64,000 bases of DNA from Clostridia bacterium. GTDB taxonomy: Bacteria > Bacillota > Clostridia > Oscillospirales > CAG-272. The notes under the pieces were generated by a model. It ran no database searches, was not told where the DNA came from, and saw only the letters and a program-made list of their open reading frames with translations. Made by a program: the position numbers and the translations under genes. Location of the stretch: NCBI GenBank assembly GCA_017624905.1, contig JAGAMD010000012.1, forward strand, positions 506 to 64,505, in the 5' to 3' direction. Shown piece by piece: positions 1 to 56,892 of this stretch (position 1 is the stretch's first letter; every line of letters starts with the position of its first letter).

Positions 1-3000
1 CGTATGTAACTACCGCTATTTGACAAGTTTAGACTGGATTGTGAATCAAGGTATATACCATAACCACCGTTACCACCGTTGCCACCGTTGCCACCTTTAC
101 CACCATCGTGTCCTCTGCGGACAGAGGCGTCTGTTTTATGAGCAGAACCATTTGCACCGTTGCCACCGTCACCGCCATTACCACCGCTGCCACCGTTGCC
201 GCCTTCAGCATGAATTTTGGTTGCTGAGCTAGTTGTAAGTCTACTTGCTACAATAGCATGAGCGCCATTACCACCATTGCCGCCGTTGCCACCACCGCAA
301 TCCGTTTCACCGTTATATCCAGAGGCACCATTGCCACCATCACCACCATATGCATATATCTCTCCTTTAAGATTTATAGTTAGATATGATGCGTTGATTG
401 CACAATTGCCGTTTTCACCACTTGCACCAGGACTTGAGCCGCCTTTTCCGTCATAACCATATACGATTAGCTTTCCCTTTTCGTCATCGTCATAAGAACC
501 TTCAATTGTGAGGTTTGAGAACCAACCAATAGCAGGTCTGCTCGAGTCGGTTGCTGAGATAGTACATGTTCCTTTTATATCTAAAGTAACGTTCAAAATA
601 GAAGGATGCTCCCAAGCTGTAATGAATCCTTTGAAGTTGAAGTTGATGAAATGAATCTTTATGTTAGAATAACTCTTGAAGCATGCTAAATAAATGAAAA
701 GATCATAATATGTAACATCTTCACTGCCGATAAAGTAAACCTCAGTTGTTCCTGCACTGATATCAAGGTTTTTGTTTCCTCCGACATAGTCGCTTAAAAC
801 ATCACTATGATAATTGCAGTTATCACCTGGTTCAATTGATGACCAGTTGTAAACAAAACGAGTTGTACCTGCTACGTTTGGATCTGCATCTGGAGATGTT
901 TTGTAATAATTATACACTTTAACTAAATCCCATTTAGCATATAGGTTTATGTTTGAAGGGGAAGCTTTAAACTCATCGACAGAGAATTTTTGAGTGAAAG
1001 CAGAATCCTTATACCAACCTATGAAGTGATTGTATTCAGAGTAAGAGGAATATGAAATACAATTTTCGTCAATACTTTCTATAGTATGCTCTACAGTTTC
1101 CGACGGAGCAACATTTGGATCGTTATAGTGATATGTGATATTGTATTTTATAAGCTCCCATTGTGCATATAGTGTAGCAACACCATCTTTTTCAGAAGCG
1201 ATATAATTCACGGATTCTTGATCACTATATGAATCGCCAGTGCCATCTGGTTTTGTGTTCCAACCCACAAAGGTTGATCCGGAACGATAAAATCCGTTTA
1301 TTGCAAGAGGCAACTCTGTATTAATGTCACGACTTACTTGCGTATCTATTGTGCTTCCACCAGTAGCACCATTACCATCATAAACAACAACGTACTCTAT
1401 AGCAGCCCATTTTGCATAAACGTAAGTTCCGTTTTCTAAGTGGTCGGTATCGATGCTAGAAATCATATTATCACCGAAAGTAGTTAATTGCCAACCAGCA
1501 AGAACACTACCATTCTTTTGGTAAACAGGCATTTCGAAACTAACATTGGACCAAACTGCATAAAGAGTTAAATTTCCGATGTTTCCATTTTTTAAATCTA
1601 TTGTGTCGCCAACAGAATATGCTATTTCCTTGCTGTCTTTTGAAAGCGACCAGCCGAGAAATTCTTGATTTACAGTTCGATGAGTGTTTTGTGAATCGGA
1701 AACAAGGCTGTAAATATAAATAGTTGTAGATTTTGAAAAGTTGTTTGAAAGTGTAAATAAGCTGTTTCCACCTGCATAAGAAACTTGATTCATTACACCA
1801 CTGGTTGCACCGTTTCCGTCAAACGTGATAGAGTTTGGGGTCCAGTGAGCATAAAGTGTTTGCTTTGGCTGGTTGTAATTGTAAGAAACAAGTGAATCCG
1901 CGGTGATTTTTTCGCCGCCTACAAACGCTGTGTACCAACCATCAAATGTGTATCCGTCGCGAGAAAGAGTAGGGAGTGCACCATATGTTTTGCGATTATT
2001 GTTTTCATCAAAGCATTCAACGGTTGTTGAACCTAATTCAGTTGAATCGTCATTTGGATTTAAAACAATATCATATTGATTGCTTAACAAGTTGGCATCA
2101 TATCCACCTACAAGATTTTGTAAAAGTCTTGTTAAATCGTTAATATTTACAGAACCATTTAGATCTACATCTGCATAATTCAAGTTGAACGAAGAATCGT
2201 TATAATTACTTAAATATCTTGCAATTAAAACAGAGTCTAGTATATCAACAGAACCATCATTGTTAACGTCACCTGGAAGATGAGAAACAACGGTTATTCC
2301 ACCAGGAACGGTGCTAATATAAACAGGATTGTTATTCTTGTCAGAAAACTGAACACCGCTTCTTGAGAAAGAAATAGAAATATCATATTTTTCAAGCAGT
2401 GTTGCGTCGTCGGGAACCTTAAAAACAAGCTTTAACATGTTTCCATCGTTGTAGTCGACTTGCGCTCTGGCCATGGTGAAATAACATGAACTTCTTTCAG
2501 CATGAGGGTTGTAAGAGCTTATTGTGTTTAAAACATCAGAAGCTGCGTGGCTTATTAATTCAAGTCTTTCGTCATAGTTTACGCTAAAGGAAACACCTGT
2601 AATGCCAGGATTATTTATCATTTGCACATAAACAGTAATATATTGGTTGCCATCTAGTAAAGCATATGATTCGCCAACAACTACTCTTGGAGTACTTTCG
2701 GCTAAGCTTTGAGATTCCTTATAAACTGAATCGCATATTATACATGTGTAAATGATAGCGCCCTCTGTTTCGGTTGCGGAAAATTGGTGCTCTTCAATTG
2801 CACCACAATCCTTACATTGGTGTATAGTTATATTATCAACATCCTCGTAATTATGAGGTGTAATAGGCAACTCAGTCCCTTTTGAAACTATAGTTTCACA
2901 CTTTGTACAGAAAATGTCGCCTGAATATCCAGGAATAGTACAAGAAGATGCGAATTCGTTGTGTAAAATTAAATCGTGCTCGAGCTTATCTACAAAGGCA

Positions 3001-6000
3001 TTCTTTTGATAAAAGCCACAATCATTACATATTGTAACAGTATATCCAAAGGACGAGCATGTAGGTGGTACTGTTTTTGACGAGTAATTGTGAACACCGT
3101 TGTGTTCAAGATAATATGCACAAACGACAGTGATTTCAAATTCAACCTTGAAATCGTCATAAGTAGCAGTTATCAATTTTGTTCCAAATTCTGCAGTTGC
3201 ATCAGCTGGAATTTGAACATTACGTGTTACGTTGATTGATGAACCATCACCATACATAAGCAGGATTTCGCCACCCAAGGTAGAAACTGTGTCTCCCTTG
3301 CCATATATTAATTGGTTTGGCAACACATTTAGAACAAGTCCAGTTGGCTTGTTTTCTTTAATCAAAACAGGCAGTTCCAGTGTTCCAGCAGTTGTTTGAC
3401 CATCTATTGTTGTTACAAACAAAATTTTAGCTGTGGTTGTCTTTTTGCTTGTTTTGCTTGAGTTTTTGGAATCAAAAAAGTAAGAAACGATCGAATATTC
3501 AACATCCTTGTGATCACCAATATCTATGGATAAATTTTCAAGCTTGAGAGTGTTTTCTCCACTTTCATAAATTTGATCAACATAATAGCCTAGATCTTTA
3601 TCGTAATCACATGTGAATGAGTAGTTAATATCAAAAGAGGCAACATTGCTTGGAAAGACGATGCTTGCTTCATCTTTAGATATTTCATCTTCGCTAATTG
3701 TGGTGTCAGGAATATAGTTGCTATTTTTAGCAAAAGAGTTTTTAGTATTGCAATAGCACATAAAGGTTCCTACGTTGTCTGCAAGGAACTCACACCTGTC
3801 AATGCTAACAGATGAAAAAACATTTGAAACATTTCCGCTATAGCTTTGAGCTGCAATTCCTCCAGCATAAACATGAACATAAGGGTATACTGTTGCGGTG
3901 TTCTTTTCAGCATAAGATAGACCAGCGGACTTTAGAGAAACTCCACTAACAACTACATTGCTTACAGTTCCGCCATCGATCAAGGCAGCAATTCCTCCAG
4001 CATAAACGCTTGAAGCATTACTCTTGTCATCATTAGCTTTGTAATTACGTCCAGATATTGCTGATACACTGCTGTTCTTGACGCTACAATTTGATATAGT
4101 GCCAGAGCTAATTCCAGCAATACCACCAGAATATGCACTAATAGACTTATTTACTATATAAACCTCTTGCTTTATTTTTATTTCGCAGTTAGCAATGTGG
4201 CAATTCGAGATAGTGCCATGGTTCACAGCGGCAACGACGCCGGCTTGAGCCTTTGGATTGCTTTCGCCTGTGTTATCAATTTCGATTTTTATCGAATCGA
4301 ACTTTAAGTTTTTAACTGTTCCAGACCCTCCGATGCATTCAAAAAGAGCAGCGGTGTCAGAGTCTTTTATTGTGAAGTTTGAAAGTGTGTGTCCACGACC
4401 ATCGATACTTCCTGCGAAAAATTCGTCTTCATCTAGTGCATTTCCAAACGCAGATAACTCAGCGTTATCAAAATCAATGTCATTTAAGATGATGTAGTGA
4501 TTTGACAATCCGTTTTTTAAGCTACCTATCGATTTGAATTGCTCGGCGGTTGAAATGATATAAGGATCATCTTTAGATCCACTACCACCATTGTAGGTTG
4601 ATTCGTTTCCAACATGAAAATCAATGGAATAAACAGTCTTTTGGTTATAAAGAACTGTTCCTGTGAATTCACTATATTGCTCAGGAACAGAAAGCTTTCC
4701 ATCATTTGAAGAAAAAACAAAGTCGCCATAAGACCATTCATATGTGAAAAGGTCTTCGTTTAGGTCAAAAGCTTTGCAGATTCTTTGTGGAAATTTATTT
4801 AAATAAATTGTTTGACCTATGAGAACTTGACCATATGTTTCCATGTCTGCGTTTGTCATTGTTCTGTATGTTTCGTCAGATAATTGAAGAGAAAACGCAG
4901 ATTCAATTCCAATGATATATGCGATATCTTTTACAAGCTGTGCTTCTACAGCCTCAAGAGAAACATTTCTTGTTGCATTTAGCTTAGTTGTGATTTCGCC
5001 ATATGTAATGTATTCATCTTCGTTGTAATAATATCTTGTTTCATCGGTGATGGCTTCTCCATATTGCTGTAGCAAGTATAGCTGTTGATTGAGAAGGCAA
5101 AGATCAACCATATTTTGCGCTTTAATAAGAGTGTTATACAAATCTAATGCGAAATCAACTGCTTCACCTTCTACGTCTTGCTCGGGTATAAACTCTCTGT
5201 TTTCAGAAAGATAATCATAATAGTAACGTTGGATTGATAGCTTGACACCTGTTGAGTCAGTCTGCATATATTCATAGAGCATTTGTATATTGGACAAGCC
5301 AGATATTGGATGCTCGGAGCATAGTGCAGTATATATGGCATCATATTCGTCTTTGAGCTGAGATAAATCGTCTGGATTTTTGGCAGCGGCTTCCTGTAAA
5401 ATAAATCCATATGCTTTGTCATAGTATGGATTTTCATTTATGTCAGAGCTTCCGTGCAAATAGTTTTTGAACATTGTATAGCTGAAGTTACCATCGGAGC
5501 TGGATACAAATTTTATAATTTCCTCTTTCGCTGTTTGAGCAGCAAACGCCCCAGAAAGAGCGGAGAGTATTTCTTGAGTTTGCTTATCAACATGAATGGA
5601 AAGCTCACTGATATCTTCTTGCAATTCATCAATGTTGTTATTTACCTCGTCAAATTTCTCGTCAATGTGATTTTGCAATTTTTGGGTTTCTGTTTCAGCT
5701 TCATTCCCAGATTTCGCTAATGATACAACGCCGTTTAAAATGGAGTCAGAAACATCACCTAAGCCGAAACAGGAGGCAACAATGTTCACTGCGGAGATCG
5801 TTAGATCAATCATTGCACCTGCAACATCGGGATTGTCATCTTGCATTGCTGTGGCAAAAGTGAAAAGTGATGAAATGCCCTTGCTTAAGCCTTTTGCAGT
5901 GTTATCCTTTAATTTTTTAGTTTTTTCTGCCTTTTCTTCGTCTTCAAATCTTTTGTTTATTTTTTGAAGAGTTTCGGTATAAGTAGGCTTTTTGCTTTTT

Positions 6001-6137
6001 TTGGTTTCCTTGCTGGTTGTTTCTGTTTGAGTTTGCTTTGCAACAGAAACAGGTGTTGCAACTATAGGTAGCGCAAAGGAGAACGATAGCAATAAAGCAG
6101 TAACTATTACGATGAATCTTTTTAAAATGCTATTCAT
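1..6137 (-). CDS. Giant secreted cell-surface protein, C-terminus cut by the window edge (>2040 aa). Order of modules: signal peptide, helical N-region, GLUG-like segment, Cys-rich CxxC module, cohesin-like domain, type I dockerin, at least 4 Listeria-Bacteroides (Flg_new) repeats, Gly-Gly-Asn triplet tail
   Basis: My own minus-strand translation from ATG at 6137 (GGAG about 10 nt upstream) gives MNSILKRFIVIVTALLLSFSFALPIVATPVSVAKQ. The frame stays open to position 1. The supplied track has no other ORF >=60 aa between 232 and 4258, which fits one long partial ORF left out of the track. Motifs read directly: GDVNNDGSVDILD...DVDLNGSVNIND (2103-2275), GYTFDGWYT (1925-1960), FLGWSLSKD (1633-1670), FVGWNTKPDG (1240-1285), FIGWYKDSAF (1000-1030), repeated YAGGIAA/YSGGIAG (about 3780-4450). 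Confidence 0.85.
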   Translation of the reverse strand, partial: MNSILKRFIVIVTALLLSFSFALPIVATPVSVAKQTQTETTSKETKKSKKPTYTETLQKINKRFEDEEKAEKTKKLKDNTAKGLSKGISSLFTFATAMQDDNPDVAGAMIDLTISAVNIVASCFGLGDVSDSILNGVVSLAKSGNEAETETQKLQNHIDEKFDEVNNNIDELQEDISELSIHVDKQTQEILSALSGAFAAQTAKEEIIKFVSSSDGNFSYTMFKNYLHGSSDINENPYYDKAYGFILQEAAAKNPDDLSQLKDEYDAIYTALCSEHPISGLSNIQMLYEYMQTDSTGVKLSIQRYYYDYLSENREFIPEQDVEGEAVDFALDLYNTLIKAQNMVDLCLLNQQLYLLQQYGEAITDETRYYYNEDEYITYGEITTKLNATRNVSLEAVEAQLVKDIAYIIGIESAFSLQLSDETYRTMTNADMETYGQVLIGQTIYLNKFPQRICKAFDLNEDLFTYEWSYGDFVFSSNDGKLSVPEQYSEFTGTVLYNQKTVYSIDFHVGNESTYNGGSGSKDDPYIISTAEQFKSIGSLKNGLSNHYIILNDIDFDNAELSAFGNALDEDEFFAGSIDGRGHTLSNFTIKDSDTAALFECIGGSGTVKNLKFDSIKIEIDNTGESNPKAQAGVVAAVNHGTISNCHIANCEIKIKQEVYIVNKSISAYSGGIAGISSGTISNCSVKNSSVSAISGRNYKANDDKSNASSVYAGGIAALIDGGTVSNVVVSGVSLKSAGLSYAEKNTATVYPYVHVYAGGIAAQSYSGNVSNVFSSVSIDRCEFLADNVGTFMCYCNTKNSFAKNSNYIPDTTISEDEISKDEASIVFPSNVASFDINYSFTCDYDKDLGYYVDQIYESGENTLKLENLSIDIGDHKDVEYSIVSYFFDSKNSSKTSKKTTTAKILFVTTIDGQTTAGTLELPVLIKENKPTGLVLNVLPNQLIYGKGDTVSTLGGEILLMYGDGSSINVTRNVQIPADATAEFGTKLITATYDDFKVEFEITVVCAYYLEHNGVHNYSSKTVPPTCSSFGYTVTICNDCGFYQKNAFVDKLEHDLILHNEFASSCTIPGYSGDIFCTKCETIVSKGTELPITPHNYEDVDNITIHQCKDCGAIEEHQFSATETEGAIIYTCIICDSVYKESQSLAESTPRVVVGESYALLDGNQYITVYVQMINNPGITGVSFSVNYDERLELISHAASDVLNTISSYNPHAERSSCYFTMARAQVDYNDGNMLKLVFKVPDDATLLEKYDISISFSRSGVQFSDKNNNPVYISTVPGGITVVSHLPGDVNNDGSVDILDSVLIARYLSNYNDSSFNLNYADVDLNGSVNINDLTRLLQNLVGGYDANLLSNQYDIVLNPNDDSTELGSTTVECFDENNNRKTYGALPTLSRDGYTFDGWYTAFVGGEKITADSLVSYNYNQPKQTLYAHWTPNSITFDGNGATSGVMNQVSYAGGNSLFTLSNNFSKSTTIYIYSLVSDSQNTHRTVNQEFLGWSLSKDSKEIAYSVGDTIDLKNGNIGNLTLYAVWSNVSFEMPVYQKNGSVLAGWQLTTFGDNMISSIDTDHLENGTYVYAKWAAIEYVVVYDGNGATGGSTIDTQVSRDINTELPLAINGFYRSGSTFVGWNTKPDGTGDSYSDQESVNYIASEKDGVATLYAQWELIKYNITYHYNDPNVAPSETVEHTIESIDENCISYSSYSEYNHFIGWYKDSAFTQKFSVDEFKASPSNINLYAKWDLVKVYNYYKTSPDADPNVAGTTRFVYNWSSIEPGDNCNYHSDVLSDYVGGNKNLDISAGTTEVYFIGSEDVTYYDLFIYLACFKSYSNIKIHFINFNFKGFITAWEHPSILNVTLDIKGTCTISATDSSRPAIGWFSNLTIEGSYDDDEKGKLIVYGYDGKGGSSPGASGENGNCAINASYLTINLKGEIYAYGGDGGNGASGYNGETDCGGGNGGNGGNGAHAIVASRLTTSSATKIHAEGGNGGSGGNGGDGGNGANGSAHKTDASVRRGHDGGKGGNGGNGGNGGYGIYLDSQSSLNLSNSGSYI
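20..330 (-). repeat. Coding microsatellite-like array of 9-bp units (GCCACCGTT / ACCACCGTT variants on + strand) encoding GGN/GGS/GGD triplets
   Basis: Direct reading: caccgttaccaccgttgccaccgttgccacc and similar runs at 60-100, 150-215 and 270-300. They translate on the minus strand to GGNGGNGGNGGYG, GGNGGSGGNGGDGGNGANG and GGGNGGNGGNGAH. Confidence 0.8.
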
Positions 6138-6150
6138 ATACTTTATACTC

Positions 6151-7533
6151 CTATTCTAATACGGTAGTTTTGCCAGAAATTATTATTGGCTGTGCTTTTT
6201 CTAGATTTTCATTAATATAGTATGTATCATCAAGTATTTCAATAACGAAATATCCACAAGAAGGAGGCTGTCCTACAGTGAATGTGAATTTGAACATATT
6301 CATTTGTCCATTTGATGAAACAGAACCGCCAGATGACCAACAGAATTCATATGTGTGATTGGTTGAATCGAGTTTTGAGGTCGTAGAGCCACCAAGGTTG
6401 GAGGTTAGGATCTTGATATCATCGTTGCTTATGTTGAGATTTTCGTCATATTCTAGATGAATGTTTAGTCCGTGCATTGTGATTTTTCCACAAAGATACA
6501 TATAAACGGAAAACTCTGTTTCGCTACGGCTTATTTCACTGGAGTCTACAATGATGATTGGCTCAGTTACTTCTTCGTCATATTGAGCAGTAATAACTGC
6601 GTTGGATGAAATACTGTCTAATGCTGTGTCCCAACCGGTAAATTTATAACCTTTCATTTTGTTCCAGTCAAAATAAATTTCATCAATTTCTGGTGGTGTT
6701 ACGGAAAAGCCATGATATACGTCGGTTATGGTTGTAATGGTTTCGCCACTTGGCATGTTGAAAGTAACCATGTATGTGTTGATTTCGTATTTTGCATTAA
6801 TAGTCATGTTGGATGTTACATTTTCAAATGAGGCATCCCAACCTATAAAGGTGTATCCCTCTACAGGCTCAAGAGTAGGTTCAATTGCACTTTTTCCGTT
6901 TGTTACGAGTTGTTCTTCAATCGTATTTCCATTTATATCTAAGAAGCTTACCTTGAATTGCTTTATGTATTGTGCTTGAATGGTTAGGTCTTCGACAACG
7001 TAATTGAAATCGGAGCTCCACCTTTCAAAAATGTAGCCAGATCGCGTAGGCTGTGTTGGCTCTGTGGCTGGATTTGTATGAAAAATTTCTTGTATTTCAA
7101 TTATCGAGCCGTCATAATCTATAAAAGTTACCGTATGTTGCTCAGTAGTTGGAATGAAATATGCATAAACTGACATACTATTACTTATATTGGTTATATC
7201 GGCTTCAATATCAGAATCTGGTTGAACAACCCATTTTTGAAAAATAAATCCTGTGTCAGCTGATGCAGGCTTGAATGGCACGGAATGTGGATATATGGCG
7301 GATTCGCCCTCTTTCACAGTTACCTCTGCCAATAGAATAGCACCGGTTTCGTTGTAAAATGATACGGTGTATTCGGCAGGAGCTTGCTCGCTGTTTGTAT
7401 TTGAATTAGTGTCGGTGTTAGTGTCTGTGTCTGTGGGTTCGTTTTTCCCTTTTTTACAAGCGCTTATTGCTATTGTAAAGGTAATCAAAAGAACTACTGA
7501 TAGAACGAGTAAAAGCCATCTTTTGCCCTTCAT
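6151..7533 (-). CDS. Surface lipoprotein with four Listeria-Bacteroides (Flg_new) repeats and a C-terminal cohesin-like domain
   Basis: ORF track gives 6151..7599. I prefer ATG at 7533 (GGAGGA 6 nt upstream), giving MKGKRWLLLVLSVVLLITFTIAISAC, a signal peptide with lipobox ISAC. Repeats: FIFQKWVV, GYIFERWSSD, GYTFIGWDASF, GYKFTGWDT. The C-terminal ~130 aa (HGLNIHLEYDENLNI...) look cohesin-like. The stop lies 13 nt upstream of the giant gene start, so the two are probably co-transcribed. Confidence 0.8.
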   Translation of the reverse strand: MKGKRWLLLVLSVVLLITFTIAISACKKGKNEPTDTDTNTDTNSNTNSEQAPAEYTVSFYNETGAILLAEVTVKEGESAIYPHSVPFKPASADTGFIFQKWVVQPDSDIEADITNISNSMSVYAYFIPTTEQHTVTFIDYDGSIIEIQEIFHTNPATEPTQPTRSGYIFERWSSDFNYVVEDLTIQAQYIKQFKVSFLDINGNTIEEQLVTNGKSAIEPTLEPVEGYTFIGWDASFENVTSNMTINAKYEINTYMVTFNMPSGETITTITDVYHGFSVTPPEIDEIYFDWNKMKGYKFTGWDTALDSISSNAVITAQYDEEVTEPIIIVDSSEISRSETEFSVYMYLCGKITMHGLNIHLEYDENLNISNDDIKILTSNLGGSTTSKLDSTNHTYEFCWSSGGSVSSNGQMNMFKFTFTVGQPPSCGYFVIEILDDTYYINENLEKAQPIIISGKTTVLE

Positions 7534-48329: not shown

Positions 48330-48330
48330 A

Positions 48331-48360
48331 AAAAGACCTGACAACCGTCAGGTCTTTTTG
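48331..48360. terminator. Bidirectional rho-independent terminator
   Basis: GACCTGAC aacc GTCAGGTC with flanking A/T runs. Confidence 0.85.
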
Positions 48361-48362
48361 TT

Positions 48363-49655
48363 TTATTCAGCTAAAGAAGAAAGCTTTTTTAAATCATTAA
48401 TCAAGTCGGCTTTTTCTTCATCGTGATTATATTCATTCCACTTTTCAATAACATCACGCATATCAGCTAGAAAAACATATATTTTTTCATAAGGCTTGTT
48501 GCTTTTTACATCTCGCCATTCTCCAGTTGCAAATAGCTCTGAATATAGTAGCTTTTTGTTTCCAGCAGGCTTTTTATCGTATTGCTTTTCTTTGTTGTAT
48601 GGAATGATAAAGCAGTTATAAATTGTGTTTTTGCCGTTTGTTTTCTTAAACAGATGGTCGCCATATGTGAGTTGCTTTTGAATGGAATCGGTAGTAGGCA
48701 ATCCAGCTATATCATCATTTTTATACCCCTCGTCTGCGTAACGATAGCATTTTGCATCTATGATAACATAAATGTCGCTTTCATCATCGCTCTTTTGACG
48801 AAGAATAGAGTCAGGGAAAAGAGGAGATGCATTCTTTCCACAGCTCCATTTTCCAGTAGGCATATATGGATCTAAATCATTTTCTGTTCCATAAATTTGG
48901 TCTATCATTCGTTCAAAAACATAGTGATAGCTATCAACACCATATACAAGCTCACCATTTATCGAGTTGTTTAATCCGCTAACTACATCAAGCATATTCT
49001 TCAATCTTAATTGCTTTTCATCATCGAATGTTTTGTCAATTTCTAAATTAAGAGCATAAATATATTGCTTTTTCTTTGCATTTGAAAGCTCAATGTCCTT
49101 TAAATTCTTAACACCGATAGATGCAGATCGAACACCAAAAAGCCAGCCTATTAAAAATATACTTTTCTTAACGCAATGCTGATGAATTTCCACAAGTAAA
49201 TTGTCAACTGAGCTTTTGGAAGAAACAACGAAGTCCTTGTAAACAAATGAGCCATTTGAATAAAGCGCTTGCTTGCTAAGTGTTCTTTTCCAGTTTATTT
49301 TCCCGTTTTGATTTTGCTTATATACGGTTTCTCGATTTTTATAATAACCATTTTTCAAGAAATCTCTAATAATCCAAATATAGGATTTAATAGCAAAAAA
49401 GTCATCACCATCACAAGAATCGTTAAGCTTTGTTTTCTCTTTAGATTTTGTTTTTGCAAATTCTATGCTTGATAAAACAGCTCTAATGCTATTAGAAATA
49501 TTTTCATCTATATCAGAAACGGCAATATCGTTGATATCTTTATTCCAACGAAAGGTTTCTGGATAATAAAAATCAACTGCGTTTTCAGAAAATTTGATGC
49601 CTACGAAGGATTTTCCTCCTTGAGATGCATGAAATTTTAAAATTCTATCAGTCAT
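48363..49655 (-). CDS. McrC / LlaJI-R2-like PD-(D/E)xK restriction endonuclease subunit
   Basis: 430 aa. Nuclease core FPDS...IYVIIDAKCYRY...SIQKQLTYGDH (PD...D-x-K...QxxxY). Located 9 nt downstream of the McrB-like gene. Confidence 0.75.
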   Translation of the reverse strand: MTDRILKFHASQGGKSFVGIKFSENAVDFYYPETFRWNKDINDIAVSDIDENISNSIRAVLSSIEFAKTKSKEKTKLNDSCDGDDFFAIKSYIWIIRDFLKNGYYKNRETVYKQNQNGKINWKRTLSKQALYSNGSFVYKDFVVSSKSSVDNLLVEIHQHCVKKSIFLIGWLFGVRSASIGVKNLKDIELSNAKKKQYIYALNLEIDKTFDDEKQLRLKNMLDVVSGLNNSINGELVYGVDSYHYVFERMIDQIYGTENDLDPYMPTGKWSCGKNASPLFPDSILRQKSDDESDIYVIIDAKCYRYADEGYKNDDIAGLPTTDSIQKQLTYGDHLFKKTNGKNTIYNCFIIPYNKEKQYDKKPAGNKKLLYSELFATGEWRDVKSNKPYEKIYVFLADMRDVIEKWNEYNHDEEKADLINDLKKLSSLAE

Positions 49656-49664
49656 ATTCTAATC

Positions 49665-51734
49665 TCACTCATCAAAAGAAATTTTAGAATTAAAAATTTC
49701 AGCGCCCTTGTCAGCCTTCCAACCTTCAATTAGCTTGTCAAGAGTATTATAATCCTTTGTGTTGAACCATTTTTCACGGTCAAACTTTGCAACATCATTC
49801 CAAAGATATTCAAGAATTTTATATGCAAACTCTTCAATTTTGGCTTCACTTGCGGTTTCACCAGCATCAAGGAGCATATCGCTATCTATAAAGTATTTGC
49901 CAATTTGCTTATCCTCAGAGTCGAAGGTGCCATCCTTAATCATATAGCTGTTGATTTTTTCAACAAAGGTTTTCCAAGTAACATTTGTAAGACCAGGGAT
50001 ATATTTATCGCCGATAGTATCGTCCTTTGTAAATGTATTAGAAAGCTTTTTGAATTTCCAACGACGCTTGAACGCTGTATCTAGAGTATATACATTTTGG
50101 TCGCTTGTGTTCATTGTAGCATAGATGAATAGGTTTGAAGGAATTTTAATATATGAATAGTTATATGTGTAGTTAATTCCATATCTGTGGATTTTTTTAT
50201 TGAGCTTTTTGCTTGATGAATCTCTTAAGTAATCTAAAATTTGCAAATTAGTAAGCTCATATTCACTAATTCCATCCTTGCGATCTAAGAGCTGGAACAA
50301 ATCTCCAAAAATACTTGCTGCGTTTCCTCTGTTTAGCTCCTCAATAACTAGAGCAACCTTTTTATCGCTATTAATAATTGCACATTCAAGGGCTAGTGTA
50401 AAAGGACCTGGAACAAATTGATATGTAACCTTGTCTTCGTCGCCAACTACAGGAATAATTTGTCCAACAAAGTCTGTATTTGTGTAGTCTTGATGAAAGG
50501 TTATTCTAATAACATGTTCATCTTCAACATCATTTAACAAATTGGTCTTGATGTGATGAGATTTTCCACATCCAGGCGTTCCATAAATAACACGGTTTTC
50601 GCCACCCTTATAAGATACATCGTCGTAGCTATATGGTTTAGCGCTTTCTTCGGAGTCTTTATCAAAAGATTCATCCAAATCTGTATCAATTCTCTCAAGC
50701 TCGCTACTCTCATAATCATCATCTAGGTCTGAATCCTTGCTTCCACTCATAGATGCACCTACATGTCCAATAAAAGTTGCTGGCTTACCACTTTTGTAAT
50801 CGATAAACAAATCAATATATTTGTTTGATTTTCCTACCTTTGCTTTTGCATCGCTTAAGGTTTTATCATTGTCATATTGTTGGTCGATGTCATTTGGATA
50901 TTTGTAGCCACAAATTTCTTCAATCCTTCTAATTCTGTATTCAACATTACTTGCCTTATTGTCAGACATGCCAGCTTTTTTACAGTAATTTCTAAAGTCT
51001 GGTCGTCTCATAGGAGTACAGAATAAATCATAAAAGCCAAAAAGAGAATATTTACCACTATTTGATTTTAAATAAGAGTGCATTTTTCCCTTTTCGGAGG
51101 ATTTGCACTGTCCCTTATATCTATCAAATAAAATGTAGTTTTCTTTTCTAAAACTGTCGATTATGTCAGCCTTGCTCATGAATTTAGTGTTTTCATAAAG
51201 GTGGTAGTAGCCATTTGCATCCTTGTAAATTTGTATATTTATTGAGGATGGATCAGCACTAGCAAGACTAGATATAACTTCAACCTTACGGAAGTTAGAT
51301 GGATTTTTAATGTAACTGTTAAAGCTAGCTATATCCTTTGTAGCATTATCAAAGCTGTTTTGGTCTAGTATATTTAATTCAAAAAAGCTTTGTGAAGCTG
51401 GATTATTAATTAAATTTAATGTTGTTTTGTCTAACATAAAAAGGTCGGCAGAGCAAAACTGTGAAATATATAGTGCGTTACAAAACAGTTCTTTTCCTGT
51501 TGCATCAGTCCATTTAGGTGAGCATTTTGCTACAACATCAGTTCCTCGCATCTCGAATTTGTCAAAAACCCAAAGCCTTTTTAACGCTGCAGGACTAAAT
51601 TCGTTTTCGTATCTTACAAATAATAAATCTCCCTTAGATAGATTTCCAGGATAATAGTCTTTTTCTAGCGCTATAAATTCAAGGCTATCAACCTGTGCCT
51701 TCACATTCATTTTTACATAAAAAACATTGCTCAT
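49665..51734 (-). CDS. McrB / LlaJI-R1-like AAA+ GTPase subunit with an uncharacterised ~330-aa N-terminal domain and an acidic linker
   Basis: Walker A GTPGCGKSH, McrB-type motifs VIEELNRGNAASIFGDLFQLLDR and IYATMNTSDQNVYTLDTAFKRRW. Linker DSDLDDDYESSELERIDTDLDESFDKDSEE. Confidence 0.8.
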   Translation of the reverse strand: MSNVFYVKMNVKAQVDSLEFIALEKDYYPGNLSKGDLLFVRYENEFSPAALKRLWVFDKFEMRGTDVVAKCSPKWTDATGKELFCNALYISQFCSADLFMLDKTTLNLINNPASQSFFELNILDQNSFDNATKDIASFNSYIKNPSNFRKVEVISSLASADPSSINIQIYKDANGYYHLYENTKFMSKADIIDSFRKENYILFDRYKGQCKSSEKGKMHSYLKSNSGKYSLFGFYDLFCTPMRRPDFRNYCKKAGMSDNKASNVEYRIRRIEEICGYKYPNDIDQQYDNDKTLSDAKAKVGKSNKYIDLFIDYKSGKPATFIGHVGASMSGSKDSDLDDDYESSELERIDTDLDESFDKDSEESAKPYSYDDVSYKGGENRVIYGTPGCGKSHHIKTNLLNDVEDEHVIRITFHQDYTNTDFVGQIIPVVGDEDKVTYQFVPGPFTLALECAIINSDKKVALVIEELNRGNAASIFGDLFQLLDRKDGISEYELTNLQILDYLRDSSSKKLNKKIHRYGINYTYNYSYIKIPSNLFIYATMNTSDQNVYTLDTAFKRRWKFKKLSNTFTKDDTIGDKYIPGLTNVTWKTFVEKINSYMIKDGTFDSEDKQIGKYFIDSDMLLDAGETASEAKIEEFAYKILEYLWNDVAKFDREKWFNTKDYNTLDKLIEGWKADKGAEIFNSKISFDE

Positions 51735-51777
51735 TTCCGTTCTCCTTTATAAATGTCTTTGACGATATGATAAAATA

Positions 51778-51806
51778 ATTATATCATAAAGTAATATTTA
51801 AGTCAA
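51778..51806 (-). promoter_or_regulatory. Consensus sigma-A promoter of the McrBC-like operon
   Basis: Minus strand: TTGACT (51806-51801), 17 nt, TATAAT (51783-51778). Confidence 0.7.
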
Positions 51807-51830
51807 CTAAAACACTTTTTAGTCGACTAA
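51798..51830. promoter_or_regulatory. Two related palindromic sites (operator-like) over and upstream of the -35 box
   Basis: Perfect 12-bp palindrome TTAGTCGACTAA (51819-51830) and related TTAGTTGACTTAA (minus strand of 51798-51810). Centres are about 20 bp apart. Confidence 0.4.
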
Positions 51831-51856
51831 GCCTATTATATCGCATCTTGTGTACT

Positions 51857-51885
51857 AAAAAAGACACCCAAAAGGGTGCCTTTTT
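51857..51885 (-). terminator. Rho-independent terminator after the esterase gene
   Basis: CACCC aaaa GGGTG stem with flanking A/T runs. Confidence 0.65.
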
Positions 51886-52837
51886 ATTTTCTTTCTCTAT
51901 ATGAAAGAATAATGTGCTCACCAAATAGATGACCTAGCTTTAATTCACTCATTGAATCGTAGTGGGCAATGTCAGGCTCACCCTCCGGCTCAGCCTCGGT
52001 TGTTAATCCTGCATCAACAGTTGAGAAGTATAGGTTGAGAGGGGAGCTGTTTGCAAATCGCTCCTTGGCTGAGTTTATAACCTCATATCTTTTCCAGAGG
52101 GGAATGTCCTCAATACCGGCATCTATAAAGTATATACCGCCATTTTCCTCATATGCTTTTAAGTCCTCTCTTATACAAGAAACAAAGAAGGATTGATTAT
52201 CATAATACTCGTCAGCTACCTTGCCACTTGCATCACTCTCTCCCTGCATCCAACAAACGGCACCGATTTTTGCATCATAGTTGTGCGATATAAGTGCATC
52301 CATATATGTCTTTGTAAAGAGCATAAACGCTTCATAAATTGAGCCACGCTCATCTCCGTAAAGCCACTGAGTTTTTAAACAGCTACCGGAATATGTGTAT
52401 TTTAAAATAACAATTTTTTCATCAGGATATTCCTTTGATAGCTTTTCAGCAATTCCAAGCTCCGGACCAAAGTATTCATCAGTTACACCACAGCCAAGCT
52501 TAGTAGTAACGAACTCGCCCCCCGAGGTGTTTCTTTTGTTGTCCTCAAGATGGTTTATTAAAACATTAGAAAAGCCGTCTTTGTATATTTTATATTGCTC
52601 ACTGTCTATATTCTTTTCCAAATAACTGTTTAACGCACAGCCGGTTGCATTGCTTTGCCCAAGCACCAAAACAACCTTAACCCTCTGTCCGCCACCGTCT
52701 TCAAGGGTAGTTGGCTGATTAAAGGTATTGTCAAGCTCAAGCCAAGTACGCCCCTTGTTTTTATCACCACAACTAGCAAGTAAAACAACAGAGAACAGAA
52801 AACAAACGGCTAAAATTAAAGATATAAATTTACGCAT
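51884..52837 (-). CDS. SASA-family (sialate O-acetylesterase-like, DUF303) carbohydrate esterase lipoprotein
   Basis: Signal peptide with lipobox LLASC. LGQSNATG and WMQGESD motifs characteristic of the SASA/SGNH-like esterase family. Confidence 0.7.
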   Translation of the reverse strand: MRKFISLILAVCFLFSVVLLASCGDKNKGRTWLELDNTFNQPTTLEDGGGQRVKVVLVLGQSNATGCALNSYLEKNIDSEQYKIYKDGFSNVLINHLEDNKRNTSGGEFVTTKLGCGVTDEYFGPELGIAEKLSKEYPDEKIVILKYTYSGSCLKTQWLYGDERGSIYEAFMLFTKTYMDALISHNYDAKIGAVCWMQGESDASGKVADEYYDNQSFFVSCIREDLKAYEENGGIYFIDAGIEDIPLWKRYEVINSAKERFANSSPLNLYFSTVDAGLTTEAEPEGEPDIAHYDSMSELKLGHLFGEHIILSYRERK

Positions 52838-52846
52838 TTTTCTCTC

Positions 52847-55432
52847 CTATTTTGAATATTTGCAAAGCGAAATATCACCTACAATTCCGGAAGGTGGGAT
52901 TTGCATAAAGAATGATAAATCATCACGTCGCTTATGTGCAAGATTGCTCTTAACTACAATCTCAAGCTCGTTTTCCCCATCTCTTAACGCATGCTTTAAG
53001 CTAAACTTGTACGGGGCATTGATTCTTGCACCAAGATATTTGCCATTTAGCCAAGCTTCACATATCTCTCCAACCTGACCTAAATCTATTACATCAAAGC
53101 CGTCATTTATATTTAGACTTGCTTTGTAGCGGATGCTGCCGGAAAAGTGAGGCATACACTTTGGTGCTGAAATATCAAAAATCTTTGAGTCCCTTGCAAT
53201 CAAGCGATAGTCCTTTTCGCCCTCCTCCATAACCTCAATGTCAAAGTGCAGGTCAAGAGGGATTCTTTCTATCTCGCTCGTAAAATATGGTATGTCATTT
53301 GGAATTTCATCACCGAAAATAACAAAAATCATATTTCCACGCTCAAGGTGTAATTTAAGCTCACCATTTTTACACTCGTAGCGATATAGCTTGTTTTCCC
53401 AAGGCTCGTAAATTAGACACTCACCGTCTTCTTCAAGGAAAACGGAAGAATCAACATTGTTTATAGTGTCCTCGTTAGAGAATAGATAAATATTACGCTT
53501 GTCTCTTTGTATATGGTAAAAACGCAAGGTGTCAGAGTTTCCTTGTACATGGCAAAGCTTTCTTTGTCGTAGCTCGTTTACAAGCTCGTTACCCTTAATA
53601 GCTTCAAATGTATCGGGAATAGTATAACACCTCTCAAGCTCTACTGCAGAAGAAGGAAGCGAGTCAATAAAGATAACAGGCAAACCGCTTTTTGATAGTC
53701 TTTCAAAGCACAAAAGCACATCAAGAGGCAAAGCGTCGCTTTCGGAGATAATCAAAGCACCATAGCTTTCACCATTTATATGTAGTCTATTGTCCTTGAT
53801 ATCGGCACTCTTTAAATAGTCAAGTGGCACAATATCAAAATCAACAAGACCGCGTGTTAGCTTTTTGCATATATCAAAGAACAAGTGTCCGTTTTTAGAG
53901 GTCCATTCGCCCTCTGCATTGTAAAACACAGCTACATCAGCCTTATGTGTGCCATCACTTATCATATGAGAGCATCGTCCCATATACTCCATTAGATTTT
54001 TAAATAGTGGATATTGAATATTCTTGCCACCGTTATAAAAATGTGGTGGGCAATCTGTGTCCTCTTCCTTTGGCGAAAATGCGTGTGGCACAAAATAATT
54101 AACGCCACTAGACAGCATAACGTCGGCAAGTCCCTTCATAAAGGGTAGCCCCTCAGCCCAACCAAATGCACCAAAAAGCTCACACATAGCTCGTCCTTTT
54201 TTAAGAGGCTGAATGTGTGCGTGAGATGAGGCAAGCTTAGGCAGAGTATAACGGAAAAACGCAGGGTCAGCAATACCGCCATCAGCTAAAGGCGAACGAT
54301 GAATGACATCAGCCATACCGGGAATGTCCTGCATAAGCACAATATCAATTCCCGCCATATCCTGTCCGTCAAGTGCACGGAAATAATGACCTGAGCCATA
54401 GCCAAGTCGCATATGAGCACCCATATCCTCGATAACGTGTCCTATATACATAACTCCGTGATCACGGCACCAGTTGCCAAGCAAATAGCTAAAGTTTTCA
54501 CTATATAGCTTAGTTACTATGTTCATATAGTGAGTTCTTATTAGAGTTGACATATCTCCAAGGTCTTCAAAGAGGGCAGGAATATAAAGCTCAATTTTGT
54601 TTTTATCAATTCCTGACTCCTTAGCTATTAAATCGGTTAAATCGTCTCGCCAAGGAAACGGAGAATGCATATCGCCAAGACGATTAAAATATGTATAGCA
54701 AACATTTAAAAAGCCCGGCTCGTCAGAGAAAAATCCCTTAAAGGTGTTTCCAAAATACTCCTTAAAATGCTCATAATGTGGCTCGTAAATTGCATCAATC
54801 ATTGCGTGGCACGAGTCTTTATTCAGCATATCGATATAGTAAAACAGACGGTCGTTTTCATAGTCAAATGGCTTGGTTTTAATAGTTATACATACTCGCC
54901 AAACACCCGTCGGCACATCCCAATAAACCATACCATCATCAAGAGAAGAGGTTAGGTCAACAGCACTTTTGTAGTCAAGCTCCTCGCCGTTTCCTATATG
55001 CTTATATGCAATAACCTTGAGTATTTCTTCCTCACTGTTAATTCTGCCACTGACATAGAGCTTTGTCCCCTTCATAGGACCGAGCACCTCTATTTGTAGC
55101 TCTCTTATAAGAGACTTTCTTAAATGAGCTCTTTCAGGCGCTTCAAGATAGCCGTTTGCATAACCGGTAGGAAATTTTTTATCATCAAGAAGCCAAACAG
55201 ACATATTTAGCTCCTTAGCTGTTTTCAGTATAAAGCCGAAATCGTCCCACCACTCATCACGGCAAAAGCCCTCATATGGTCTGCTCTCAGCACAAAATTC
55301 GCTAATGCCACTGTTTTTTATTGCAATTATCTCCTCACGCACTCTTTCCTTTGGCTCACCGTGTAGCCACAAAAAGGGGAGAATATAGCTCCCTTGCTTA
55401 CCTAGTAAGCAATCCTTGATTCTTTCGTCCAT
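52847..55432 (-). CDS. Large glycoside hydrolase, GH106-like (glycosylhydrolase-like jelly-roll family; candidate alpha-L-rhamnosidase)
   Basis: 861 aa. N-terminal PFLWLHGE...WLLDDKKFPTGYANG and C-terminal sugar-binding jelly-roll pattern AWLNGKYLGARINAPYKFSL..DGENELEIVV. The family assignment is from memory of Pfam PF17132-type proteins. Confidence 0.5.
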   Translation of the reverse strand: MDERIKDCLLGKQGSYILPFLWLHGEPKERVREEIIAIKNSGISEFCAESRPYEGFCRDEWWDDFGFILKTAKELNMSVWLLDDKKFPTGYANGYLEAPERAHLRKSLIRELQIEVLGPMKGTKLYVSGRINSEEEILKVIAYKHIGNGEELDYKSAVDLTSSLDDGMVYWDVPTGVWRVCITIKTKPFDYENDRLFYYIDMLNKDSCHAMIDAIYEPHYEHFKEYFGNTFKGFFSDEPGFLNVCYTYFNRLGDMHSPFPWRDDLTDLIAKESGIDKNKIELYIPALFEDLGDMSTLIRTHYMNIVTKLYSENFSYLLGNWCRDHGVMYIGHVIEDMGAHMRLGYGSGHYFRALDGQDMAGIDIVLMQDIPGMADVIHRSPLADGGIADPAFFRYTLPKLASSHAHIQPLKKGRAMCELFGAFGWAEGLPFMKGLADVMLSSGVNYFVPHAFSPKEEDTDCPPHFYNGGKNIQYPLFKNLMEYMGRCSHMISDGTHKADVAVFYNAEGEWTSKNGHLFFDICKKLTRGLVDFDIVPLDYLKSADIKDNRLHINGESYGALIISESDALPLDVLLCFERLSKSGLPVIFIDSLPSSAVELERCYTIPDTFEAIKGNELVNELRQRKLCHVQGNSDTLRFYHIQRDKRNIYLFSNEDTINNVDSSVFLEEDGECLIYEPWENKLYRYECKNGELKLHLERGNMIFVIFGDEIPNDIPYFTSEIERIPLDLHFDIEVMEEGEKDYRLIARDSKIFDISAPKCMPHFSGSIRYKASLNINDGFDVIDLGQVGEICEAWLNGKYLGARINAPYKFSLKHALRDGENELEIVVKSNLAHKRRDDLSFFMQIPPSGIVGDISLCKYSK

Positions 55433-55583
55433 TGCTTAAGCCTCCATACTCGGTATAATATTACTATATCATATTTAACTAAAATTCACAATAAGTAAAG
55501 TAGAAAAACTCAGCCTTTTACCAAGGAAAAATAAAAATTTTCATTTATGTGTACCAAAAAAGTCACACTACCTAAAAACCTAG

Positions 55584-55612
55584 TTGACTTTTCGCTTTTA
55601 GTTCGCTATAAT
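55584..55612 (+). promoter_or_regulatory. Consensus sigma-A promoter driving the retron ncRNA/RT transcript
   Basis: TTGACT (55584-55589), exactly 17 nt, TATAAT (55607-55612). Confidence 0.75.
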
Positions 55613-55619
55613 GAGCTCA

Positions 55620-55822
55620 CAAAGCTTATGAAAGGAATAATCATAGGGCAATAGTGTATTCCATTTAGGAGTCGATAGCGAGTCGCTATTGATACAATTC
55701 AATTTTACATATTTCGCAAATGCTCAAGCAAAAACACTCCATGTAGTAAATCCGCCCACCATATGGGCTGTCCTACATATCGCATTCTTGCCATACAAAT
55801 GTATTGTCCTATGATTGTTATT
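55620..55822 (+). ncRNA. Retron msr/msd non-coding RNA (a1 55636-55653, candidate branching G 55654, msr hairpin 55672-55692, msd imperfect hairpin 55716-55791, a2 55802-55819)
   Basis: AATAATCATAGGGCAATA pairs antiparallel with TATTGTCCTATGATTGTT (18 bp including two G:U). The msr stem is TCGATAGC/GCTATTGA. The msd stems are ATGTAG/CTACAT, GCCCA/TGGGC and GCAAATGC/GCAT(tc)TTGC. It sits between the promoter and the RT start, as in Ec86-type retrons. Confidence 0.65.
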
Positions 55823-55825
55823 TAT

Positions 55826-56749
55826 ATGATAGTTTATACTGAGCTTAAGTCAATAGAAAAGGATTTAGGTATTCCACTAAAAACATTGTTTTCGGTTAGC
55901 AATAATCTGTCGAGCCACTACAAAAAGGTAAAAATTGCTAAAAAGAATGGTGGAACAAGAGAGCTACGCGTACCGGACTATATTTTAAAGAAAATTCAAA
56001 GAGCGATTTGTGATACCTTTCTTGTATATGAGCCTATTTCTAAATACGCACAAGCATATCGCTTTGGCTCAAGCGTTCAAAAAAATGCTTCGTATCATAT
56101 AAACATGAAAAAGATACTCAAGCTCGATATAAAGCACTTTTTTGATAGTATTCTTTATACCACAGTAAAGGACAAGTGCTTCCCAAGTGATAGATTTTCA
56201 GAGCCTATAAGAATACTTTTAAGTGTGCTTTGCTATTATGGTGATGCGTTGCCACAGGGTGCACCATCCTCGCCAGTAATAACCAATATTATTATGAAGG
56301 ATTTTGATATAGAGGTTGGTAGCTTTTGCGAAAAGAGAAATATATCATACACAAGATACTGCGACGATATGACCTTTTCAGGAGATTTTGACGAAAAAGA
56401 GATAATTTCATTTGTCAAGGAAAAGCTGTTTAGCTGTGGTTATTTAATCAACAACAAAAAGACAACTGTTGTGAAAGAGGGCAAATGTCAATTAGTTACA
56501 GGAATAGTAGTAAATAAAAGACTATCAACCCCATCTGAGTATAAGGCAAAAATAAGGCAAGAAATCTATTTTGGCACAAAATACGGCTTTGAAAACCACT
56601 TAAATCATACAGGCAACCAAACTGAGCTAAAAAGCTACATAGAATCGCTGCTTGGCAGAGTATCATTTGCATTACAAACCGAGCCCGACAATAATGAGTT
56701 TAAAAAATACAAGGCTCAGCTTATAAAGTATAAAAAGAGCATATCATAA
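55826..56749 (+). CDS. Retron-type reverse transcriptase
   Basis: NASYH (NAxxH), LKLDIKHFFDSI, LPQGAPSSPVITN, YTRYCDDMTFS (YxDD), QLVTGIVVN (VTG), C-terminal LLGRVSFAL. It is colinear with my recollection of Ec86 RT. I prefer ATG 55826 (alternative 55811), because the track start 55763 lies inside the msd hairpin. Confidence 0.85.
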   Translation: MIVYTELKSIEKDLGIPLKTLFSVSNNLSSHYKKVKIAKKNGGTRELRVPDYILKKIQRAICDTFLVYEPISKYAQAYRFGSSVQKNASYHINMKKILKLDIKHFFDSILYTTVKDKCFPSDRFSEPIRILLSVLCYYGDALPQGAPSSPVITNIIMKDFDIEVGSFCEKRNISYTRYCDDMTFSGDFDEKEIISFVKEKLFSCGYLINNKKTTVVKEGKCQLVTGIVVNKRLSTPSEYKAKIRQEIYFGTKYGFENHLNHTGNQTELKSYIESLLGRVSFALQTEPDNNEFKKYKAQLIKYKKSIS

Positions 56750-56750
56750 A

Positions 56751-56776
56751 AGCACACTGATAGTGTGCTTTTTTTA
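56751..56776 (+). terminator. Rho-independent terminator immediately after the RT gene
   Basis: AGCACACT gat AGTGTGCT followed by TTTTTTT. Confidence 0.85.
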
Positions 56777-56892
56777 TTGTTGCAATATTATATAATTTAT
56801 GTTAAAATAGAAAAAGAGTTAGACTAAAGCAAGGTGAAGGTATAAGCTATCACTCGCTTTTTATTATATCATCAAGCTTTTTGGGGGAGTAT

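Follow-up and report, generated by a model that had tools for sequence, protein, structure and literature searches.

An apparently complete, effector-less Ec107-like retron in a Clostridia bacterium

A 64,000-nucleotide stretch of DNA from a Clostridia bacterium (contig JAGAMD010000012.1; the whole stretch is called the window here) carries at positions 55584-56776, almost certainly as judged from its sequence, a complete Ec107-like retron with the architecture of an element that produces multicopy single-stranded DNA (msDNA). The cassette lies on the plus strand and opens with a sigma-70-type promoter, TTGACT-17-TATAAT (55584-55612), which has 11 of 12 matches, is the top promoter-like site regionally, and has its -10 box ending 23 nt before a1, the 5' arm of the noncoding RNA (ncRNA) duplex; a TATAAT box stands 6 to 8 nt upstream of a1 in several relatives too. 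The ncRNA, composed of msr and msd, is bounded by the arms a1 (55636-55653, AAUAAUCAUAGGGCAAUA) and a2 (55802-55819, UAUUGUCCUAUGAUUGUU). Between them lie the predicted branching (priming) G, the first base after a1 (55654), within the conserved motif AAUA-G-UG; a small msr hairpin of 3 bp with the loop AUUUA (55660-55670); the main msr hairpin of 10 bp with the apex GCG-AGU-CGC (55671-55693); and the msd template region (55694-55801). The gene for the retron reverse transcriptase (RT), with its YCDD box, follows at 55826-56749, and an intrinsic terminator with an 11-bp stem and a T tract (56748-56772) overlaps the stop codon and closes the cassette, so that promoter, msr-msd, RT and terminator are predicted to form a single transcription unit. 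The same arrangement is present on eight contigs from several samples. An initial annotation of this DNA had already proposed the promoter and a terminator directly after the RT stop codon, and both are found where it placed them.

The translated RT contains NASYH, LPQGAPSSP, YTRYCDDMTFS and QLVTGIVVN, all as first quoted, and thus both the retron-specific region X (NAxxH) and region Y (VTG). The earlier size of about 308 aa was close, the start codon lying at 55826 instead of 55827 and the protein being 307 aa long; the statement that it has no extra domain also stands, RVT_1 being the sole domain found. Because the N-terminal MIVY is conserved among homologues, a 328-aa open reading frame (ORF) beginning at 55763 is best read as a gene-caller extension over the msd. 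A search returned 3407 homologues at E <= 1e-20, and the best 120 of these are 296-409 aa long, mostly about 300-330 aa, and so carry no fused domain either. The closest database relatives are 99% identical and belong to the same species, the next are at most 73% identical, and the relatives found are metagenome-assembled genomes of Clostridia and Oscillospiraceae.

To place the RT among known lineages, PADLOC profiles were used. The RT_Ec107-like model matches over its full length with 404 bits (E = 1e-121), followed by RT_III-A with 321 bits, whereas the RT_II-A models, which represent the Ec86 type, reach 182-206 bits. All top matches are retron RT models, and the group II intron and DRT models score at most 60 bits, which bears out the original identification of the element as a retron. 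As a calibration, the E. coli Ec107 RT scores 437 bits with the Ec107-like and 313 bits with the III-A model, while an RT linked to a phosphoribosyltransferase (PRTase) scores 334 and 430 bits, respectively. By BLASTP the window RT and the Ec107 RT from E. coli share 38% identity (E = 5e-79), with YTRYCDDMTFSG and VTGIVVN identical, and YCDD in place of YADD is a described peculiarity of RT-Ec107 (PMC6868368). A search of the PDB gives 86-95 bits to the RTs of Ec83, Ec86 and Ec78, with only 86 bits to Ec86; the Ec86-like label that the RT first received must therefore be given up in favor of Ec107-like. The lineage is known as the Retron-Eco5 type, as RT clade 2 of Mestre et al. 2020 and as clade2_Ec107like; the assignment to clade 2 was made by profile scores, sequence identity, the YCDD box and a covariance model, without a tree.

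The arms a1 and a2 are inverted repeats of 18 nt that can form 16 Watson-Crick and 2 G-U pairs. Taken by itself, such a repeat does not exceed chance expectation in this AT-rich stretch, where other 20-nt repeats with 77-85% complementarity occur, and the reality of the duplex rests on covariation in homologues. Such covariation is evident in the closest relatives with enough flanking sequence (RT 59-70% identical), where the arm sequences are wholly different and complementarity is nonetheless perfect. Their a1 arms end in CAAUA followed by G, and their a2 arms end 7-9 nt before the ATG. Written up to the predicted branching G, a1 reads AATAATCATAGGGCAATA / G in the window, AAGGAACGACCGCAAGGCAATA / G in L013, GGAAAAGAAGATCAATA / G in L017 and GGAAACAAACGCGGGCAATA / G in L021, and the motif UAG[UC]G around this G is conserved among relatives. 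The minimum free energy fold of 55620-55830 (211 nt) has a z-score of -4.5 and retains both the a1/a2 duplex and the msr hairpin.

A covariance model, R1, was built from the window and three relatives (L013, L017, and L021) and comprises 187 positions and 41 pairs. It has a single match in the window, the retron itself, and a same-strand match upstream of the RT in about 55 other loci. In an alignment of 39 sequences, 92.7% of the pair cells are paired, compared with 33-45% when the partners are slid by 1-3 columns; compensatory changes are seen at 37 of the 41 pairs, and none of 500 shuffles reaches the observed values. All six helices covary. Helix 3, the small msr hairpin, has 92.8% of its cells paired with compensatory changes at 3 of 3 pairs; helix 4, the main msr hairpin and the probable RT-binding element, has 93.7% with seven compensatory pairs; and helices 5 and 6, in the msd, have 96.8% and 100% with 11 of 11. 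The apex GCGAGUCG occurs upstream of the RT in most relatives, E. coli Ec107 included. Conserved blocks in the msd are UUCGC, GCUCAAGC and AUACAAAU, the last at 55793-55800 directly 5' of a2, and these probably serve RT recognition and initiation. The initial annotation had suggested folding the region and looking for covariation among homologues, and both support its msr/msd assignment: the 18-bp duplex of a1 and a2 is as described, the msr hairpin placed at 55672-55692 extends to 55671-55693 with an AGU loop, and G55654 directly follows a1. Of the msd hairpin drawn at 55716-55791, a core within 55741-55778 is upheld by covariation, namely the helices 55741-55746/55773-55778 and 55754-55758/55764-55768, while its full length is not.

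Two other approaches to the pairing gave less usable results. Wide-window RNAduplex comparisons of a1 against a2 within and between loci were confounded, because the core GUGGAACA/UGUUCCAC is common to distant loci and U-rich flanks pair with purine-rich ribosome-binding sites; the covariance-model alignment and its pair counts took their place. When applied to the first MAFFT alignment, RNAalifold paired part of a1 with GCAUUCUUGCC, which was traced to a misaligned a2 in L017; the helix is not conserved. A related alternative helix, 55648-55658/55783-55792 (GGCAAUAGUGU with GCAUUCUUGCC), competes with the top of a1/a2 and is kept in L013 and L021 and not in L017; it may be due to chance or may represent a conformational switch. 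An antisense role for the msd was discarded, its complementarity to other window sequence being limited to chance matches of at most 12 nt. The ncRNA has no match among Rfam families, whether gathering thresholds or E values up to 10 are applied, the only hits being terminator look-alikes.

The RT genes of the window subgroup (window 55819-55828 and the equivalents in L013, L017, and L021) lack a Shine-Dalgarno sequence, and their start codons lie only 7-9 nt downstream of the end of a2, 7 nt in the window. Given this proximity and the missing Shine-Dalgarno, the a1/a2 duplex may control RT translation in the subgroup. More distant Ec107-like loci have a clear GGAGG. One locus, L019, has its ncRNA (5571-5757) about 245 nt upstream of the RT start (6001), compared with the usual 7-30 nt.

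In E. coli, R1 picks up the experimentally defined msr/msd of Ec107 (28.6 bits, E = 1.4e-6), the matched sequence comprising a1 CGCCAGCAGUGGCAAUA, G, hairpin GGUCGGCGAGUCGCUGACU and a2 UAUUGCCGCUGUUGGCG, which aligns the predicted branching G55654 with the G after GGCAAUA in the Ec107 msr. Ec107, the prototype, is a minimal retron that has no additional ORFs and has been known since 1992. Herzer et al. in 1992 reportedly placed its branch point at the 18th residue of a 75-nt RNA that carries a 107-nt DNA, and we take the G after GGCAAUA to be that residue. The distance from the start of a1 to a2 in the E. coli Ec107 locus is 177 nt, which equals 75 + 107 - 5.

The RT is under strong purifying selection. 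The ratio of nonsynonymous to synonymous substitution rates (dN/dS) is 0.12 between L007 and L011, which come from syntenic species and share 82% amino acid identity, 0.11 between L003 and L004, and 0.03 between the window and a strain at a dS of 0.09; the overall range is 0.03-0.15, which implies that the element is not decaying. Between the window and that same strain, the ncRNA and promoter region has 3 differences in 390 positions. NAxxH, LPQGAPxSP, YCDD and VTG are invariant in the RTs of 42 relatives.

No effector gene accompanies the cassette. Its flanks are a divergent GH106-like glycoside hydrolase and glpK, with a LlaJI/McrB-like pair about 4 kb away (48363-51734), as had been reported, and the earlier finding of no neighboring effector holds for the 64-kb window, in which no retron effector model is matched. 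Among 43 window ORFs, PADLOC detects no retron effector family, its matches being limited to the LlaJI-type restriction pair and to ATPase, helicase and radical-SAM hits of a generic kind; the window likewise has no match to hidden Markov models made from 14 PRTase and 9 winged-helix neighbors of other retrons. Nor do the relatives share a partner. Pfam analysis of five neighborhoods finds SecG and DUF362; MutS2 and an SLH protein; alanine racemase; a uridine-kinase-like protein and Lit; and UvrA and an aminotransferase. All-versus-all BLASTP of ORFs within 5 kb at 18 loci reveals no shared family apart from spurious ncRNA-spanning ORFs and one syntenic species pair. When extended to the flanks of 98 loci (L001-L102), of which over 70 are YCDD relatives, it yields no shared neighbor for YCDD RTs at least 47% identical to that of the window, and in the remaining YCDD loci neighbors are shared only within groups of near-identical or syntenic contigs, where synteny is not separable from linkage. 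The scenario in which close homologues uniformly carry an adjacent effector, raised at the outset as one that would refute the initial reading, is thus contradicted, as no close homologue has one.

In contrast, 14 more distant relatives with RTs 34-41% identical have, upstream of the ncRNA, a gene whose product of about 290 aa matches PRTase_III-A (2e-78), in most cases together with a second gene whose product of about 100 aa matches WH_III-A (1e-25). Across the 98 loci, all 14 PRTase-linked RTs are YADD and no YCDD RT has a PRTase neighbor, in a scan that was partly seeded with a YCDD peptide pattern and over-samples the YCDD side. Absence of an effector is therefore very probably the normal state of the YCDD/Ec107-like lineage and not a local deletion.

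In one YCDD subgroup (L053, L056, L058, L064, L065, L066, and L070), an ORF of 169 aa is conserved at a distance of about 670 nt upstream of the RT. Its product is predicted to be helical and has no Pfam or PADLOC match, and a WYL/WCX regulator lies further upstream (e.g., L056 2819-3328 and 1304-2257). The ORF was considered as a new accessory gene and set aside, since the seven RTs are 85-99% identical and synteny explains its presence equally well.

The retron is the right-edge component of an 8.5-kb variable block (8,548 bp; 48330-56877, with no strand assigned) that also includes a terminator, LlaJI-like R2 and R1 genes, a SASA esterase, the GH106 gene and a spacer. In two related species, whose glpK genes are 85% and 82% identical, a GH35 gene is followed by glpK after 12-16 nt, and the block is missing between the stop codon of the former and the ribosome-binding site of the latter. 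In a third relative, the locus includes GH106 and neither retron nor glpK. The locus is a variable hotspot that mixes defense genes with those for carbohydrate-active enzymes, and of the relatives found, this species alone has the retron there; exact look-ups of glpK returned only retron-bearing contigs of the same species. Two further observations concern the wider region. The terminator at 48333-48358 resembles one located after hydrolase_4 in the relative L112 (29 nt, 93%). On the minus strand, window positions 3-6155 hold a single stop-free frame of >2051 codons that runs off the left end, with a signal-peptide-like start (MNSILKRFIVIVTALLLSFSFALPIVA) and GNGGNGG repeats, probably encoding a giant secreted or surface protein.

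On a larger scale, the YCDD lineage has dispersed to many intergenic sites that are unrelated to one another, in the form of a bare cassette of about 1.2 kb. In the phage and plasmid collections nothing is closely related to the RT, the best matches having 41.5% and 39.9% identity, which lends no support to carriage by known mobile elements.

Taken together, these data are best explained by a complete, presumably expressed and selectively maintained two-component Ec107-like retron that is effector-less by lineage, an explanation that we consider probable. In the proposed mechanism, a1 would pair with a2, as the covariation supports, and thereby place G55654 at the foot of the duplex. By analogy with retron biochemistry and from the Ec107 alignment, the YCDD RT would bind the GCGAGUCGC hairpin at 55671-55693 and prime from the 2'-OH of G55654, and, if the geometry of Ec107 applies, the msd would be copied from 55801 leftwards. 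The a1-to-a2 span is 166 nt here and 177 nt in Ec107, which predicts an msDNA of roughly 95-100 nt; the branched product would be joined to an RNA of about 70 nt.

What such a complex might do is suggested by its distribution. The cassette occurs by itself at unrelated sites across many species, where it stays under purifying selection. It therefore either has no partner or relies on a conserved host component that every recipient already possesses, and a dedicated toxin is probably not involved. We tentatively favor a complex of RT and msDNA that works without a dedicated effector, a view that could prove right or wrong about equally well and leans slightly toward the latter. The complex would act by itself or through host RNase H, recombination or mismatch-repair proteins, or single-stranded DNA-binding protein. 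Leading candidates for its role are phage sensing or a phage decoy, and an involvement in stress or starvation, in line with what is reported for the expression of Ec107. The more specific proposal that RT and ncRNA form a self-sufficient unit, be it a decoy or sensor of host or phage nucleic acid enzymes or a stress-linked regulator, or else a mobile cassette that targets terminator hairpins, is a good deal more doubtful. The initial annotation listed an effector-independent function as one of three readings; it is the one that we prefer, at the tentative level just described, and it coincides with a published open question.

The strongest alternative, which we regard as unlikely, is that a dedicated effector is encoded elsewhere in the genome and acts in trans, with RT and msDNA forming the antitoxin or sensor part of a three-component system for abortive infection. 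Every characterized defense retron is tripartite, the sister lineage uses a PRTase and a winged-helix protein, and unknown effectors in trans are among the possibilities listed by Mestre et al. 2020 (PMC7736814). Yet the cassette sits at unrelated sites and was apparently gained alone, and the window encodes none of the known retron effector families. According to Mestre et al. (PMC7736814), homologues of known retron-associated proteins are also missing from most genomes that have orphan retrons, and the SPIRE survey detected no accessory module that recurs within 10 kb on either side of the RT (10.64898/2026.05.14.725207).

A selfish, self-propagating cassette, in which RT and ncRNA are conserved for their own spread or retention, for instance by insertion at terminator hairpins, is less probable still. 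It would account for cassettes of about 1.2-1.5 kb at many unrelated intergenic sites and for the way in which Ec107 exactly replaces a palindromic terminator: the palindrome that gives way to it measures 34 bp, and starvation raises Ec107 expression (PMC6868368). In agreement with this, a 401-nt probe across the slmA-pyrE junction (L117 1592-1627; L118 1200-2500) gives a split match, with exactly 34 nt replaced, in 382 of 5425 complete E. coli genomes (~7%). In the one such genome inspected, the gap is filled by the Ec107 retron, consisting of a 319-aa "reverse transcriptase family protein," the ncRNA and its own palindromic terminator. Moreover, long direct repeats flank the cassette at 3 of 27 Ec107-like loci, with scores of 25-35 against a between-locus background of 8.9 +/- 1.5. 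These measure 66 nt in L011 (5632-5697 and 6923-6989), 30 nt and perfect in L020 (5498-5527 and 6990-7019, with a third copy at 5311-5345), and 43 nt in L003 (5659-5701 and 6966-7008), and in L011 and L020 the repeats are whole intrinsic terminators. Together with the palindrome replacement by Ec107, they hint at terminator-associated insertion. However, the other 24 loci, the window included, have no significant flanking repeat, and the L020 terminator, with its third copy by tRNA genes, may belong to a local repeat family. The cassette encodes no integrase or nuclease, and L007 and L011 retain the retron vertically at a syntenic site with a dN/dS of 0.12. We know of no demonstration of retrotransposition by any retron, which also counts against this alternative. 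Insertion of the window retron into a palindrome was considered and rejected: 55556-55570 is complementary to the right arm of the terminator, but the flank similarity does not exceed background. In L020 (4975-5720), the retron lies beside tRNA genes and inverted tRNA fragments, with the repeated terminator.

The LlaJI/McrBC-like pair, put forward at first as the nearest candidate for an effector acting in trans from 4 kb away, is a very improbable partner. Pair and retron do occupy the same 8.5-kb block, which two related species lack, and both are defense-type genes. However, the pair matches self-contained restriction modules (RE_LlaJI and an AAA_5 McrB-type protein), no AAA_5 or LlaJI gene occurs near any other Ec107-like retron among the 98 loci, two genes for carbohydrate-active enzymes on the opposite strand lie between pair and retron, and the relative with GH106 and neither element suggests separate insertions. 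The degraded retron of the initial annotation, in the form of a functionless remnant of a type III-A retron after PRTase loss, can practically be dismissed: although the lineage shares a node with PRTase-linked RTs and effector loss at its origin is plausible, a dN/dS of 0.03-0.15, motifs invariant in 42 relatives, six covarying helices, a near-consensus promoter, an intact terminator, thousands of intact homologues of about 300 aa and the abundant RT-DNA given by clade 2 retrons all speak against decay.

Several considerations nevertheless weigh against a selectively maintained, effector-less retron. Purifying selection on the RT is also expected of a selfish element that needs its RT to spread. 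The cassette appears to have been acquired alone, as the retron is missing from the syntenic locus in three related species and Ec107, in the 382 of 5425 E. coli genomes that have it, occupies a single intergenic site, but this argument is indirect: the orthologue contexts examined include no clean retron-only empty site, and the position of the retron at the edge of the 8.5-kb variable block makes co-acquisition with block genes possible. An unlinked effector could lie outside the 64 kb of genome covered here. The 39-sequence alignment was fitted to R1 and so favors the structure, which is mitigated by the slid-partner control and by the independent arm sequences of the closest relatives, which do not depend on that alignment. 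Finally, msDNA production, the branching G and the transcript ends are all predictions from sequence and analogy.

Published surveys have met this group before. Mestre et al. 2020 (PMC7736814) described a clade 2 branch with Retron-Eco5 (Ec107), comprising 59 RTs with no associated protein cluster, called these orphan retrons and left open whether they have unknown effectors in trans or a different mechanism. A 2026 SPIRE survey (10.64898/2026.05.14.725207) named the group clade2_Ec107like and gave it low novelty priority, and Ec107 was left out of the defense tests of Millman et al. RT clade 2 ranks with the top RT-DNA producers in E. coli in the experimental census of Khan et al., whose set covered retrons of this clade from Clostridium sp. 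and Ruminococcus flavefaciens that lack an effector. Our literature search found no paper that assigns a function to the Ec107-like lineage. The window retron is thus a further member of a recognized, abundant, effector-less class that is widespread in gut Clostridia, and is neither broken nor unique. Effector-less Ec107-like retrons are among the most abundant retron groups in gut Bacillota, and the comparative results sharpen the question that they pose: purifying selection, a covarying RNA, the YCDD versus YADD marker and bare-cassette movement argue that the function of RT and msDNA needs no co-transferred toxin. If true, this would be a retron biology that differs from the tripartite toxin-antitoxin model, and E. 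coli Ec107, present in about 7% of complete genomes and natively in, for example, the strain of NZ_CP135488.1, is the most practical place to study it.

Among named systems, Retron-Eco1 (Ec86, II-A3) shares with the window retron the general RT architecture (NAxxH and VTG) and the logic of a1/a2 and branching G, whereas it has a YADD RT and an adjacent NDT-type effector; the window has YCDD and, by PADLOC analysis of its ORFs, no NDT gene. Type III-A retrons, such as Retron-Eco11 (III-A3), are closer, with a sister RT lineage (RT_III-A is the second-best model at 321 bits) and a shared ncRNA plan, and R1 also matches some loci with YADD or YSDD RTs. They differ in having PRTase_III-A and WH_III-A genes upstream of the ncRNA and a YADD RT, while the window retron has YCDD and lacks both genes.

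The greatest resemblance to an individual retron is to Retron-Eco5 (Ec107). Both have GGCAAUA-G at the junction of a1 and branch, the GCGAGUCGC hairpin apex and UAUUGCC at the start of a2. Both are minimal units of promoter, msr-msd, RT and their own terminator, with no other ORF, lodged between unrelated housekeeping genes, and both encode a YCDD RT, 38% identical, that scores best with PADLOC RT_Ec107-like. They differ in host, Enterobacteriaceae versus Clostridia, which are different phyla; in a1-to-a2 span (177 versus 166 nt), by which the msDNA predicted for the window would be about 10 nt shorter; in the gap from a2 to the ATG (32 versus 7 nt), the window being without a Shine-Dalgarno sequence; and in expression, reported as starvation-induced for Ec107 (PMC6868368) compared with the near-consensus promoter of the window. 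From the clade2_Ec107like or orphan clade 2 retrons as a group, the window retron differs in nothing essential: RT class, Ec107_like-type ncRNA, the lack of a recurrent accessory gene and a gut Bacillota host are common to all, and it represents one more species-level member.

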